A stretch of DNA of 64,000 nt from Escherichia coli (GTDB lineage: Bacteria > Pseudomonadota > Gammaproteobacteria > Enterobacterales > Enterobacteriaceae), in assembly GCF_030384885.1 (NCBI RefSeq), contig NZ_CP128613.1; one strand, written 5' to 3'. The notes under the pieces were generated by a model. It did not search any database. It worked only from the letters and a program-made list of their open reading frames with translations, and was not told the origin of the DNA. How positions within the stretch are numbered: the stretch's first letter is position 1; each line of letters starts with the position of its first letter. The position numbers and the translations under genes are program-made. Below, one piece after another: positions 3,471-29,006 of the stretch.

Positions 3471-6182
<2,712 letters not shown>

Positions 6183-22624: not shown

Positions 22625-24693
<2,069 letters not shown>

Positions 24694-24700
24694 ATAAAAC

Positions 24701-24730
24701 GGGAGGAGAAGGAGCCTCCTGTTTTATTTT
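24701..24730 (+). terminator. Probable intrinsic terminator after envZ
   Basis: AGGAG...CTCCT inverted repeat followed by GTTTTATTTT. Confidence 0.5.
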
Positions 24731-24856
24731 GTGCACTCAGTATCTACTGAATGAATACGGTCTCAGACATCGGCACCATACGAAGTAAAGTGTACTGTAA
24801 GCTGATTGCAGGCTAGCGTATCCTGATTAGTAAAAGCACACTAAAGGAATAGCTTG

Positions 24857-26140
24857 ATGCAACTTACCAACGAAGAACAAGTACAGATTGCTCGTATAAA
24901 AGAAAAAATCCCACGCATTGCCGCACTGGATCCTGAATGTAAGTTATTCGGTTCTGAAGGTTGGAAATATCAATGGCCGAAGCCTGCCAGCGAGGCGGAA
25001 ATAGCTTCCTGGGAGAAAAAACATAGCGTCACTTTGCCACGGGAATATCGAATTTTTCTTCGCTATATCGCTAATGGCGGTCCGGCACATGCCTACGGTC
25101 TTGAATCTTTAGGCGGTACAGATATTTATGGCGATATAACAAAAGAAAGCCCTGTACCGCTTTATATGACGCAGCAGGATGTTGATGTGTTGAATGCTGG
25201 CCGTACAGAAGATGATGAAGAATATAGTTTTTTTGACGGCGCATTGACCATTCTCACCCTGGGATGTACTTATGATATTTGCCTGGTGGTGACGGGGCAG
25301 TATCGCGGAAGGTTAATGCTGACTGATGGTGATGAAGATTATCCGTTTGATTTTATATATGATAAAAATTTCCTCAACTGGTATGAACGCTGGCTGGACG
25401 ATTTTATTGCTGGCATGAGTATGAAGGGTTTCGATAGAAGTTTGCCAGGAACGCAAATTCAACTGCGTGAGTGGTTTTTAACTGAGAAAATCCCGGATTT
25501 ACGTAGATCCATTTTATTCTCGCTATGCCGTTTTCCACAGATAGAACCCGAAACTTTTGCCCTTTGGGAACATGTTTGCCGTACAGAGAATGATAAAGAA
25601 TTGTGTGAAGAGGCATTCATAAGATTACGCCAAAAAAAAGTTTCTTGTGCTGCAGATATTTTTCGACTCTATTTTGCAATGTCAGATGAATTACGTGATA
25701 TTGCTATTAAAGATCTCCGTTTTGCCTGTAGAGATAGTGTGGTGAATATTGAGGATTATATTCATTCACTGTTAATAATAATGCCTGAACTTGACGATGA
25801 CACTCTATCCTCAGCTGTCTTTGCTATACGAGAAACAGAGTATAATAAATATGATACTTTTCTGCCGCTTCTCGAACGTATCACTGATGACCGTCAGCAA
25901 ACATTATTGTGGGCGATGAGTAAGGCGCCTGATTTCAATGAAAGCCGAGGATTCGTTGAGTTGGTATTACCGCTTTTTGCATCATCAAAGATGGAGAATG
26001 TAAGGAAGGCTATTTTGTTGCTCATTGAAGTTAAAGATAATCGTATTCCACCATTGGTTGATGAAGCTGCAACTCGTTTCCCTGAACTGACCATTTTACG
26101 AGAAAACTACTATCTCAGGACGTGGGGACATAAGCCATAA
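24857..26140 (+). CDS. Accessory protein: SMI1/KNR4 (SUKH-1)-like N-terminal domain plus about 230 aa helical C-terminal extension
   Basis: N-terminus carries the SMI1/KNR4 signature (EAEIASWEKKHSVTLPREYRIFLRYIANGG ... DYPFDFIYDKNFLNWYERWLDDF). ATG at 24857 has RBS AAGGA 9 bp upstream; the track used TTG at 24854. AT-richer than flanks by eye; no K-12 counterpart remembered at this locus. Confidence 0.7.
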   Translation: MQLTNEEQVQIARIKEKIPRIAALDPECKLFGSEGWKYQWPKPASEAEIASWEKKHSVTLPREYRIFLRYIANGGPAHAYGLESLGGTDIYGDITKESPVPLYMTQQDVDVLNAGRTEDDEEYSFFDGALTILTLGCTYDICLVVTGQYRGRLMLTDGDEDYPFDFIYDKNFLNWYERWLDDFIAGMSMKGFDRSLPGTQIQLREWFLTEKIPDLRRSILFSLCRFPQIEPETFALWEHVCRTENDKELCEEAFIRLRQKKVSCAADIFRLYFAMSDELRDIAIKDLRFACRDSVVNIEDYIHSLLIIMPELDDDTLSSAVFAIRETEYNKYDTFLPLLERITDDRQQTLLWAMSKAPDFNESRGFVELVLPLFASSKMENVRKAILLLIEVKDNRIPPLVDEAATRFPELTILRENYYLRTWGHKP

Positions 26141-26177
26141 ATTAATGGTTCAGAAATGATCTAACGCGGAGAAAAAT

Positions 26178-26708
26178 ATGATCAGGGAACATATTCAGCA
26201 AGCGATAAATAATAGGTTAGCATTTGATGGCCCATTCAATGTTGTTCCTGAACCTGCAAGCACTGCGTTTGATAGCCGGATCCCGACATTGAAAAACGGT
26301 GTCTGGCAGAAGGCCAGCCCTATGTTGCAGGCGCGTTTTGCACATTGTGGACGTTGGTTAAGCGCTACACATGGAAGCTGGCTAAGTATAAGTGACATGG
26401 AAACGCTTTGGCAGGAACACATAGAAGATACGTTTCTTGATGAAATCAAAATGAATGCTGTAGCTTCAAGTGATAATTGGGATAACCATGCCTTGGGACT
26501 ATTTCGTTCTCATCGCCTGTCACTTTTTGCCGGTAGTGATTACAGTTATGAAATGGTTTTTCTCCTTTGGCTAGATAGTACCGTTGAGCCAGAGGTCTGG
26601 GTTTATGACTGCAATGGGGAATCACGTTATAAAGATCTTAATGATTACCTGAATGCATATATTAATGATGACGTAAGCGCCTGTGAGCGCTCTTGGCGAG
26701 TAGAATGA
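26178..26708 (+). CDS. Accessory small protein (176 aa), uncharacterised, possibly SUKH/immunity-like
   Basis: C-terminal segment EPEVWVYDCNGESRYKDLNDYLNAYIND resembles the C-terminal block of SUKH-type proteins; RBS GGAG 7 bp upstream; same strand as and 37 bp after the preceding ORF. Confidence 0.55.
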   Translation: MIREHIQQAINNRLAFDGPFNVVPEPASTAFDSRIPTLKNGVWQKASPMLQARFAHCGRWLSATHGSWLSISDMETLWQEHIEDTFLDEIKMNAVASSDNWDNHALGLFRSHRLSLFAGSDYSYEMVFLLWLDSTVEPEVWVYDCNGESRYKDLNDYLNAYINDDVSACERSWRVE

Positions 26709-27331
26709 ATAGCCCCCCTTGCCCCTTTGATCCACAAACCGCACATTACCTCGGCACAGTGCAAATCCACTACACCTCAACCACCTTCAACGCTGCCGTT
26801 AAGCATTATACCTATCACATTAAAAAGCGTTTTAAAGGGGTTAAATGGGGAATTGGTACCGCTGGCTTATTGGCTATATTGCCCATGATCCCACAATGGT
26901 TGAAACCTTCTCATGACTTTAAACTCAACGCAATCAGTACGTTAATTCTTCTATTAATGTTGCCACTCCTCTTATCAATGTTCCTGTTAATCAGCAGAAG
27001 AATTAACGATTTTAAGTCAAAAACAAAGCAAGTTACTTTTACGAAACCCGTGCGTTATGCGTTTTATTTCGAGGGGATTGTTTTTTATGAATCTCATCAG
27101 CAGGGCATACTTCGCTGGGAAGATTTTTATGGCATTGAGTATGAAGAAGATTATTTGTGGCTTTTTCTGCATTTACCGAAGAGTTTTCCCAGAGAAGCGA
27201 CGAAAGCGTTTTGCGATATTTTCATTCCCACCAGTGCGATAAAAGCGCAGCCTGAACTGGATACGTTTTTTCGTGAAACACGCCACTCGCTGGATTATCT
27301 GTTTGTCCCGTTTAATTCTGACAGAAAATAA
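26705..27331 (+). CDS. Accessory membrane protein, YcxB-like (two TM helices plus C-terminal bPH-like domain)
   Basis: ATG at 26705 overlaps the upstream TGA stop (ATGA); the track used TTG at 26693. Two hydrophobic helices (WGIGTAGLLAILPMIPQWL; ISTLILLLMLPLLLSMFLLI) then ...ILRWEDFYGIEYEEDYLWLFLHLPKSF..., typical of YcxB-like proteins. Confidence 0.6.
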   Translation: MNSPPCPFDPQTAHYLGTVQIHYTSTTFNAAVKHYTYHIKKRFKGVKWGIGTAGLLAILPMIPQWLKPSHDFKLNAISTLILLLMLPLLLSMFLLISRRINDFKSKTKQVTFTKPVRYAFYFEGIVFYESHQQGILRWEDFYGIEYEEDYLWLFLHLPKSFPREATKAFCDIFIPTSAIKAQPELDTFFRETRHSLDYLFVPFNSDRK

Positions 27332-27334
27332 CAT

Positions 27335-27362
27335 ATCCCCCGTATCTGGTGAAACGGGGGAT
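27335..27362 (-). terminator. Hairpin terminator downstream of pckA, at the island boundary
   Basis: ATCCCCCGT-atctggtgaa-ACGGGGGAT, a 9 bp stem followed on the minus strand by ATGTTATTTTCT. Confidence 0.6.
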
Positions 27363-27383
27363 TTCGTCGCTTAACTTATCGGA

Positions 27384-29006
27384 TTACAGTTTTGGACCAG
27401 CCGCTACCAGCGCGGCACCCGCTGGGGTGTCGGTGTATTTATCGAAGTTGTCGATAAACAGTTTCGCCAGAGTTTCGGCTTTTTCCTGCCACTGTTCAGG
27501 AGAAGCGTAGGTGTTACGCGGATCGAGGATCTTAGTGTCTACGCCCGGCAGTTCAGTCGGGATTGCCAGGTTAAACATCGGCAAAGTGAAGGTTTCTGCG
27601 TTATCCAGCGAACCGTTGAGGATGGCGTCGATAATGGCGCGGGTATCTTTAATGGAGATACGTTTGCCAGTACCGTTCCAGCCAGTGTTAACCAGATATG
27701 CCTGCGCACCCGCCGCTTGCATACGTTTCACCAGCACTTCTGCGTACTGAGTTGGGTGCAGCGACAGGAACGCCGCGCCGAAGCAAGCGGAGAAGGTTGG
27801 CGTCGGTTCGGTGATGCCACGTTCAGTACCGGCCAGTTTGGCGGTGAAGCCAGAGAGGAAGTGGTACTGAGTTTGATCGGCAGTCAGGCGAGAAACCGGC
27901 GGCAGCACACCAAAGGCGTCTGCGGTCAGGAAGATAACTTTAGTTGCGTGGCCCGCTTTGGAAACCGGTTTAACGATGTTATCGATGTGATAGATCGGAT
28001 AAGAAACGCGGGTGTTCTCGGTTTTTGAACCATCGTCAAAATCGATAGTGCCATCTTCACGTACGGTGACGTTTTCCAGCAGCGCATCGCGACGGATAGC
28101 GTTGTAGATTTCAGGTTCCGCTTCTTTCGACAGCTTGATGGTTTTCGCGTAGCAGCCGCCTTCGAAGTTAAACACGCCGTCGTCATCCCAGCCGTGCTCG
28201 TCATCGCCAATCAGGCGACGTTTCGGGTCGGTGGAAAGGGTGGTTTTACCGGTGCCGGAAAGGCCAAAGAACACCGCAACATCGCCTTTCTCGCCAACGT
28301 TGGCGGAGCAGTGCATAGAAGCGATGCCTTTCAGCGGCAGCAGGTAGTTCATCATCGAGAACATCCCTTTCTTCATTTCGCCGCCGTACCAGGTACCGCC
28401 AATCAACTGCATACGCTCGGTCAGGTTAAACGCCACGAAGTTTTCAGAGTTCAGCCCCTGCTCTTTCCACTGGGGGTTAGTGCATTTTGCGCCGTTCATA
28501 ACGATAAAGTCAGGTTTAAAACCAGCCAGCTCTTCATCGCTCGGGCGAATAAACATGTTTTTGACAAAATGCGCCTGCCAGGCCACTTCGGTGATGAAAC
28601 GGACGGAAAGACGCGTGTCTGGGTTCGCACCACAGAAAGCGTCGACAACGAACAGACGTTTGCCAGAAAGCTGTTTGGTCACCAGGCCCTTCAGATGCTG
28701 CCAGGTTTCCGGAGAGAGAGGTTTGTTGTCGTTCTTACCTTTGCCTTTATCAGCCCACCAGAAGGTATCGCGAGTGGTATCGTCACGGACGATATACTTA
28801 TCTTTTGGTGAGCGACCGGTGAATATACCGGTATCGACGGCAACGGCACCCAGATTAGTTAACACCCCGCGCTCATAACCTGTCAGGCTCGGATCGAGCT
28901 CTTCCTGATACAGCAGGTCGTAGCTTGGGTTGTAAACGATATCATGTACGTCACTGATACCATAAGCCTCGAGTTCTTGCGGGGTCAAACCATTGTTAAC
29001 GCGCAT
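27384..29006 (-). CDS. pckA: Phosphoenolpyruvate carboxykinase (ATP)
   Basis: Recognised protein begins [30 protein letters not shown]... (540 aa); the track ORF starts 23 codons upstream. Confidence 0.95.

Follow-up and report, generated by a model that had tools for sequence, protein, structure and literature searches.

A divergent YcxB-like membrane hairpin protein as a candidate member of a variable immunity-gene locus between envZ and pckA in Escherichia coli

The accessory island between envZ and pckA

The gene considered here, ORF3, lies on a 64,000-nucleotide stretch of an Escherichia coli chromosome (NCBI RefSeq assembly GCF_030384885.1, contig NZ_CP128613.1), which is termed the window throughout and to which all coordinates refer unless another sequence is named. 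ORF3 (positions 26705-27331, plus strand) codes for a 208-amino-acid (aa) divergent YcxB-family inner-membrane hairpin protein. It is the last of three co-directional open reading frames (ORF1, 24857-26140; ORF2, 26178-26708; ORF3), which together form an island in the order yhgF-greB-ompR-envZ, island, pckA-yhgE-hslO. The queried region of the window (24650-27400) is 100% identical to that of E. coli strain 2013C-4282.

In the K-12 genome the envZ-pck spacer measures only 75 bp, 43 bp of which are replaced in the window by a low-GC (guanine plus cytosine) accessory insertion of ~2.66 kb (24726-27382). The last K-12-shared sequence before the insertion is the intrinsic terminator of envZ, a hairpin followed by a T-run (24702-24720, plus strand); homology to K-12 ends just past it, at ~24725, and restarts at 27383, inside the end of pckA. 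The GC content of the island is 0.36-0.45, compared to ~0.55 in its flanks. The entire island is found in 18 of 5426 complete E. coli genomes. It contains no mobility genes, a repeat search revealed no att sites, insertion sequence elements or bounding terminal repeats, and a search of the island against Rfam matched no RNA family. The convergent ends of ORF3 and pckA are separated by a GC-rich hairpin, CCCCCGT...ACGGGGG (27335-27362; RNA fold -18.6 kcal/mol, z = -2.3), which lies within the insertion, is lacking in the K-12 spacer and is likely to serve as a bidirectional terminator.

The ORF3 gene: start codon, selection and distribution

A preliminary description of this region, made from the sequence alone, reported a reading frame at 26705-27331 whose start overlaps the upstream stop in an ATGA, and this arrangement is indeed present: the ATG of ORF3 (26705-26707) overlaps the TGA of ORF2 (26706-26708), and the two genes are tightly coupled. 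The identical 4-nt overlap occurs in E. albertii, and in two other arrangements described below (that of Enterobacteriaceae G50 and the L022 type) the distance from the ORF2 stop to the start of the YcxB gene is 3-5 nt. The first seven codons of ORF3 (MNSPPCP; 26705-26725) belong to the ORF1-ORF2 cassette, as judged from blastn breakpoints and a junction alignment; homology to a 346-aa fusion gene of related bacteria, in which a HEAT-like domain precedes the YcxB module, restarts at 26726 (F8 of ORF3). The RefSeq/PGAP annotation places the start at GTG 26759 (190 aa, WP_227456980.1), thereby cutting off the segment FDPQTAHYLGT. Since this segment, upstream of 26759, is conserved among homologs, the sequence comparison supports ATG 26705 as the better and probable start, and the RefSeq gene model would be due for an extension of 18 codons.

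Pairwise ratios of nonsynonymous to synonymous substitution (dN/dS) in the ORF3 family are mostly 0.15-0.47, with a value of 0.79 for one near-identical pair. ORF3 is thus a real protein-coding gene under purifying selection, yet a fairly fast-evolving one. The family is small: 18 homologous clusters, conserved over the full length, were collected from 5.8 billion proteins, and 15 representatives at E<=1e-3 from 1.84 billion. ORF3 is carried by 19 of the 5426 complete E. coli genomes, and a scan of a genome collection located the close family in three of 100,044 species representatives; the same scan with the distant relatives found nothing. A tblastn search against plasmids and phages gave no match, and there is therefore no evidence that ORF3 is carried on a mobile element. 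One homolog, P0016 (182 aa, three member sequences), is a frameshifted ORF3 allele, the N-terminus of which is identical to that of the E. albertii allele P0008; its alternative frame (...FMNLISRAYFAG...) matches the window at ~27085-27242 in the +1 frame. ORF3 has thus been inactivated in some strains.

Architecture of the ORF3 protein

The protein consists of a short cytoplasmic N-terminus, a transmembrane (TM) hairpin and a C-terminal beta-rich domain. The preliminary description had counted about 45 soluble N-terminal residues, very close to the ~47 cytoplasmic residues found here. Their conserved part (26747-26845) comprises, in the AlphaFold (AF2) model, a strand (residues 15-21) and a helix (residues 25-42) ending in the K/R-rich KKRFKGVK, with Y15, L16, G17, V19 and Q20 invariant among the relatives. 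Hydropathy and AF2 agree on two TM helices: TM1 (residues 48-66; 26846-26902) and TM2 (residues 76-96; 26930-26992), the latter followed by a conserved RRINDFKSKT. TM2 is strongly hydrophobic, with a 19-residue Kyte-Doolittle mean of 2.62 that was equalled in only one of 2000 shuffles. TM1 lacks charged residues and reaches a mean of ~1.28 in the window allele, lower than the 1.5-2.75 of most relatives. The two helices had both been called strongly hydrophobic, which is slightly overstated for TM1; the two peaks themselves occur at matching positions in all 19 family members. Six Lys/Arg residues precede TM1 and five follow TM2, with a loop of nine residues between the helices, and because of this distribution both termini are predicted to be cytoplasmic (N-in/C-in).

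The C-terminal YcxB-like domain, predicted to resemble pleckstrin homology (PH) domains, occupies residues 113-193 (27041-27283) and consists of six beta-strands and a C-terminal helix. It bears the family motifs Y.FY.EG, E(S/P)HQ.G, W.DF and IFIP. The AlphaFold model, built on the family alignment, is of moderate confidence (predicted local distance difference test, pLDDT, 74.9; predicted template modelling score, pTM, 0.68). It orders the chain into the N-terminal strand and helix, two long helices (residues 44-66 and 76-108), six strands between residues 116 and 175, and a final helix (183-192). Going by this order of secondary-structure elements only, the N-terminal strand would presumably complete the beta-sheet of the C-terminal domain. 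The N-terminal strand and helix and the ~100-aa beta-rich domain would jointly form the cytoplasmic PH-like module of the protein.

Assignment to the YcxB-like family

The preliminary description had likened a C-terminal segment of the protein (ILRWEDFYGIEYEEDYLWLFLHLPKSFP, residues 135-162 of ORF3) to YcxB-like bacterial PH domains. At the level of sequence the match to the Pfam family YcxB (PF14317) stays below threshold (E=0.65, residues 123-155), and among the 19 relatives it reaches E<=1e-3 in one and E<=0.1 in six; PF14317 is nevertheless the only family that recurs on this domain. The structural comparison bears the likeness out. Of the 50 top Foldseek matches in AFDB50, 49 are named YcxB family or YcxB-like (E 1e-9 to 1e-5, probability 1.00, TM-scores 0.33-0.59), with alignments of near full length (180-227 columns); the top match is a UniProt entry identical to ORF3 and named "YcxB family protein". 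Searches of ORF3 and its relatives against NCBIfam, PADLOC and PHROGs returned nothing significant. Weak matches to MASE8, PycTM and MdoH touched the TM hairpin only and were set aside as an effect of composition. Hidden Markov model (HMM) searches of PDB sequences with profiles of ORF3, ORF2 and the HEAT-like domain gave nothing usable.

ORF3 is a divergent branch of the YcxB-like membrane proteins of the PH-like clan. Its architecture agrees throughout with that of the family, whose type member, B. subtilis YcxB, is of unknown function. In both, a short N-terminal stretch in the cytoplasm leads into a hairpin of two helices, and the chain ends in a beta-rich domain closed by a helix; the motifs of this C-terminal domain fall within the Pfam match region. 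The family is widespread, with more than 1,100 structural matches in AFDB50. The ORF3 branch, on the other hand, is tiny and very divergent, has its own E(S/P)HQxG and W.DF motifs, occurs in some lineages as a fusion with a HEAT-like domain and is embedded in an immunity-gene cluster.

Variable partners of the YcxB module at the envZ|pckA site

Every close relative of ORF3 that could be placed lies at the envZ|pckA site, always adjoining pckA. The YcxB module is the 3'-terminal gene and the sole constant one at this site, and its upstream partners vary. In E. whittamii, Escherichia sp. E4742 and E. coli A30 the site holds the single 346-aa gene mentioned above, in which a 144-aa HEAT-like domain is fused to the YcxB module. 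In a Salmonella enterica genome (positions 4806-6030 of locus L007) a 1,225-bp insert, comprising a CdiI_5 gene, a 91-aa ORF and a CdiI_5 fragment, sits exactly after ...FDPQTAH and cleanly splits the HEAT::YcxB gene into a 152-aa HEAT-like gene and a 205-aa YcxB gene, the first 11 codons of which derive from the insert. The sequence overlap at the junction of this insert amounts to only ~5 bp. Another Escherichia lineage (loci L018, L022 and L026) has a HEAT-like gene, a 66%-identical variant of ORF2 and the YcxB gene, in this order. In the window and in E. albertii, ORF1, ORF2 and the seven new codons take the place of the HEAT-like part, and in Enterobacteriaceae G50 ORF2 is reduced to 5' and 3' remnants ahead of an intact YcxB gene. 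Finally, a lineage with flanks like those of Salmonella (L020) has the reverse order, in which a protein of 365 aa starts with the YcxB module and carries the HEAT-like domain at its C-terminus.

Three of these junctions cluster within ~40 bp, and upstream of F(D/G)xxTAH the sequence can vary freely. We considered a site-specific insertion site inside the YcxB gene and dropped it, since selection to keep the conserved module intact is the simpler explanation. For ORF3 the synonymous divergence (dS) between the window and Salmonella is as low as 0.17, despite flanking envZ and pck genes that are only 86-89% identical; the YcxB module therefore moves horizontally.

In distant phyla the HEAT-like domain is also found on its own, as a small protein. 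On a plasmid of Chondrinema litorale (Bacteroidota; L027, NZ_CP111056.1, 3643-7304), a 43%-identical homolog sits in an array of small co-directional genes, one of which is an SMI1/KNR4 gene; next comes a gene for a multi-TM protein (214 aa) that does not resemble YcxB. Downstream of the three-gene island in one E. albertii genome (L006, CP117637.1, 4150-7900) come 227 bp from the 3' end of envZ, a RelE/helix-turn-helix toxin-antitoxin pair and the 3' end of pckA for a second time; fimbrial usher genes are found upstream instead of ompR-envZ. This locus has been rearranged, apparently with its core-gene flanks carried along.

The upstream SUKH genes

The preliminary description had named both upstream genes SUKH-like, and this holds for each, on different kinds of evidence. 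ORF1 (24857-26140, plus strand), which is preceded by an AGGA Shine-Dalgarno sequence, contains an SMI1/KNR4 (SUKH) domain at residues ~44-170 (Pfam SMI1_KNR4 2.7e-6, SUKH_6 3.4e-5) and is so named by PGAP. Its C-terminal half (~250 aa) is unclassified; the idea that it is a homolog of the HEAT-like domain was not supported by BLASTP or hhalign. Short imperfect direct repeats (21-30 nt, 76-83% identical) at 25194-25603 encode acidic stretches resembling TEDDEEY, TDGDEDY and TENDKEL. ORF2 (26178-26708, plus strand) is a 176-aa SUKH-fold protein. A Pfam search gave no match, and its similarity to the SUKH domain of ORF1 is not significant at the sequence level; the fold is visible by structure comparison only, where nearly all Foldseek matches of its AF2 model (pLDDT 88.5) are SMI1/KNR4 proteins with TM-scores of 0.7-0.95.

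Members of the ORF2 family are spread over Pectobacterium, Dickeya, Brenneria, Corticimicrobacter and Caulobacter. In Pectobacterium parmentieri the homolog lies 20 bp downstream of a VgrG-DcrB-PAAR/Rhs toxin gene, which is the canonical position of an immunity gene, and no YcxB gene is found nearby. From family and position we infer that ORF1 and ORF2 are orphan immunity genes, ORF2 being of the Rhs type. The PAAR-Rhs protein of P. parmentieri (L016, CP003415.1, 1710-6525) ends in a C-terminal domain of ~125 aa after NPVNWIDPFGL. This domain has no Pfam match and is likely to represent the cognate toxin type of the ORF2 SUKH family.

ORF3 as a candidate member of a heterogeneous polyimmunity locus

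The variable upstream members at the envZ|pckA site are all of the immunity type, namely two SUKH genes in the window and CdiI_5 genes or a HEAT-like domain elsewhere, and no toxin gene is found among the island genes. Zhang et al. (2012, PMC3482391) described heterogeneous polyimmunity loci for polymorphic toxin systems. They list both HEAT repeats and two-TM proteins among the immunity types and use the term "polyimmunity proteins" for fused immunity domains. We read the envZ|pckA cluster as such a locus because its genes are co-directional, tightly spaced or overlapping, exclusively of immunity type and variable between strains, with fusions in varying order. The YcxB module itself adjoins SUKH or CdiI_5 genes and is fused to the HEAT-like domain in both orders, in agreement with the criteria for polyimmunity members taken from PMC3482391. 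By association with these neighbours the module is a candidate membrane-anchored immunity protein. That ORF3 is an orphan immunity-type member of the locus has in our estimate a probability of about 45%, the immunity role being drawn from its neighbours. The preliminary description had proposed three roles for the protein, a membrane effector, a sensor or a third immunity protein; the last is the most plausible of them, on the same evidence of the neighbours only.

The cluster resembles known polyimmunity loci and orphan immunity (acquired interbacterial defence, AID) clusters in its tight co-directional array of SUKH, SUKH, CdiI_5 and HEAT-like genes lacking a toxin gene, in content that varies between strains and species, in fusions of varying order and in its horizontal acquisition. 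It differs from them in being very small (1-4 genes), in occupying always one chromosomal site, in having no adjacent recombinase or mobile element, and in that its constant YcxB member does not belong to a recognised immunity family.

If ORF3 is an immunity protein, it would be expressed from the same polycistronic message as ORF1 and ORF2, and the ATGA overlap would provide translational coupling that amounts to operon packaging rather than to a dedicated three-part machine. The protein would most likely act at the cytoplasmic face of the inner membrane. There its conserved PH-like domain may capture a contact-dependent or type VI secretion system (T6SS) toxin on entry, or a membrane-acting peptide, and thereby neutralise or block it, with the TM hairpin, which is poorly conserved, being mainly an anchor. 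A protective role at the membrane is plausible by analogy. Two-TM families of the PHb type with intracellular domains were described by Xu et al. (PMC2817789), and membrane-anchored bacterial PH-domain proteins are required both to export a leaderless bacteriocin and to protect the cell itself from it (PMC8657885, PMC11580447), as in the case of enterocin DD14 (PMC8657885). The bPH_2/DUF1200-type proteins DdE and DdF of the enterocin DD14 cluster share with ORF3 two TM helices and a cytoplasmic PH-like domain, the latter predicted in ORF3, and their handling of, and self-protection from, a membrane-active peptide toxin are documented (PMC8657885, PMC2817789). They belong, however, to another Pfam family and to Gram-positive bacteriocin operons with ABC transporters; no sequence similarity to ORF3 was detected, and bacteriocin and transporter genes are absent from the ORF3 locus. 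The two-TM immunity proteins Imm-CdiI of CdiA-CT EC93 and Imm17 are likewise small inner-membrane hairpins, occurring as immunity genes or within polyimmunity loci (PMC3482391), but they are essentially TM-only, with conserved intramembrane or loop motifs, whereas ORF3 conserves a 100-aa cytoplasmic domain and has variable TM helices.

Several observations weigh against an immunity role. In the contexts examined, no relative of ORF3 lies directly downstream of a toxin gene, and the two distant relatives (~20% identity) with usable context are solitary genes amid housekeeping genes (P0021 between secF and a GH43 gene, P0022 near abgT). HMM libraries of defence and immunity proteins gave no match above threshold on ORF3, and literature searches on YcxB and PF14317 returned no functional study of any member. 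The conserved part of the family is the cytoplasmic domain and the TM helices are variable, which does not fit classical immunity to pore-formers through helix-helix contact. The YcxB module is the fixed anchor around which the immunity genes turn over. Its association with the HEAT-like domain has been kept through 43-46% divergence, and the pairing could be a dedicated two-part function unrelated to immunity. Moreover, the interval from the envZ terminator to ORF1 (24726-24856) showed no sigma-70-like promoter; expression of the island may depend on read-through of this terminator or on an unrecognised promoter.

Alternative explanations

ORF3, ancestrally HEAT-fused, could instead be a resident accessory membrane protein devoid of an immunity role, such as a PH-type oligomeric scaffold, a transporter accessory or an envelope-stress factor. 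The interval between the envZ terminator and ORF3 would then be a permissive spot where orphan immunity cassettes gather and borrow transcription and termination signals. The YcxB module is after all the only constant gene, and the HEAT::YcxB gene stands free of any immunity cassette in E. whittamii, E4742 and A30; in Enterobacteriaceae G50 the YcxB gene persists while ORF2 decays, the HEAT-YcxB association outlasts deep divergence and a swap of domain order, the distant relatives are solitary, and membrane-anchored bacterial PH families have been proposed by Xu et al. to be oligomeric transporters or pores (PMC2817789). A gene resident for physiological reasons is harder to reconcile with its absence from more than 99% of E. 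coli and the occurrence of close relatives in only 3 of 100,044 species representatives. Low GC, horizontal exchange and dN/dS values of up to 0.47 are likewise traits of conflict genes rather than of physiological ones, the HEAT-like partner is itself found in an SMI1/KNR4-containing array of another phylum, and three distinct types of immunity cassette have landed at one place. We therefore regard a resident protein as a possible but doubtful explanation. A further possibility, which we consider unlikely, is that the two-TM module is a so far unrecognised membrane-tethered immunity or docking module, working with interchangeable soluble immunity domains (HEAT-like, SUKH) at the point of toxin arrival on the inner membrane. 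The HEAT-YcxB pairing would then be a genuine two-part unit that survives the order swap and divergence to ~45% identity, and not a mere neighbourhood of cassettes.

A stricter form of docking, in which ORF3 is the docking or oligomerisation partner that holds HEAT-like and SUKH immunity proteins at the inner membrane where toxins enter, with fusion or coupling reflecting a stoichiometric complex, seems improbable. It would account for the HEAT-like fusions in both orders, for the ATGA overlap or 3-5-nt spacing with the SUKH gene that is kept across variants, and for the similar divergence of ORF2 and ORF3 in the L022 type (66% and 63% identity); bacterial PH domains are moreover known to oligomerise and to bind peptides by sheet extension (PMC2817789). 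Against it, the ORF2 family occurs beside an Rhs toxin gene with no YcxB gene present, the Salmonella neighbours are CdiI_5 genes instead, and the partner has decayed in G50. More remote still is a membrane-disrupting effector, either of an abortive-infection or anti-phage kind or a holin-like toxin restrained by the SUKH proteins. The layout of two TM helices and a sensor domain recalls the TM effectors of defence systems, and PADLOC gave a weak match to PycTM (E=0.02, residues 54-135). This match is non-significant and confined to the TM hairpin, though, and the YcxB module occurs alone or HEAT-fused, free of a SUKH "antidote". No signalling, sensor or cyclase partner gene lies nearby, and no PHROG, phage or plasmid matches were found.

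The preliminary description had considered the trio ORF1-ORF2-ORF3 a combination not on record. The link between SUKH and YcxB is facultative, the ORF2 family works without YcxB, and both the type of locus and the family name are already known; the proposal of a distinct three-gene system is not supported.

Significance

The new results are modest: the YcxB-like proteins gain a first lead from genomic context, and the insertion and replacement of cassettes can be pictured at one chromosomal site. The locus offers a concrete, testable context, a rare cluster of E. coli, Salmonella and relatives that is exchanged horizontally and in which YcxB modules and immunity-type domains have been brought together repeatedly. 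Even if ORF3 is not protective, the locus remains a clean natural example of the insertion and replacement of orphan immunity cassettes at a fixed site without mobile-element machinery. If the YcxB module proves to be a docking or immunity module, this would be the first functional handle on the large PF14317 family. Should ORF3 protect against a contact-dependent toxin, it would represent a new membrane-anchored immunity family and suggest a role for the wider family.

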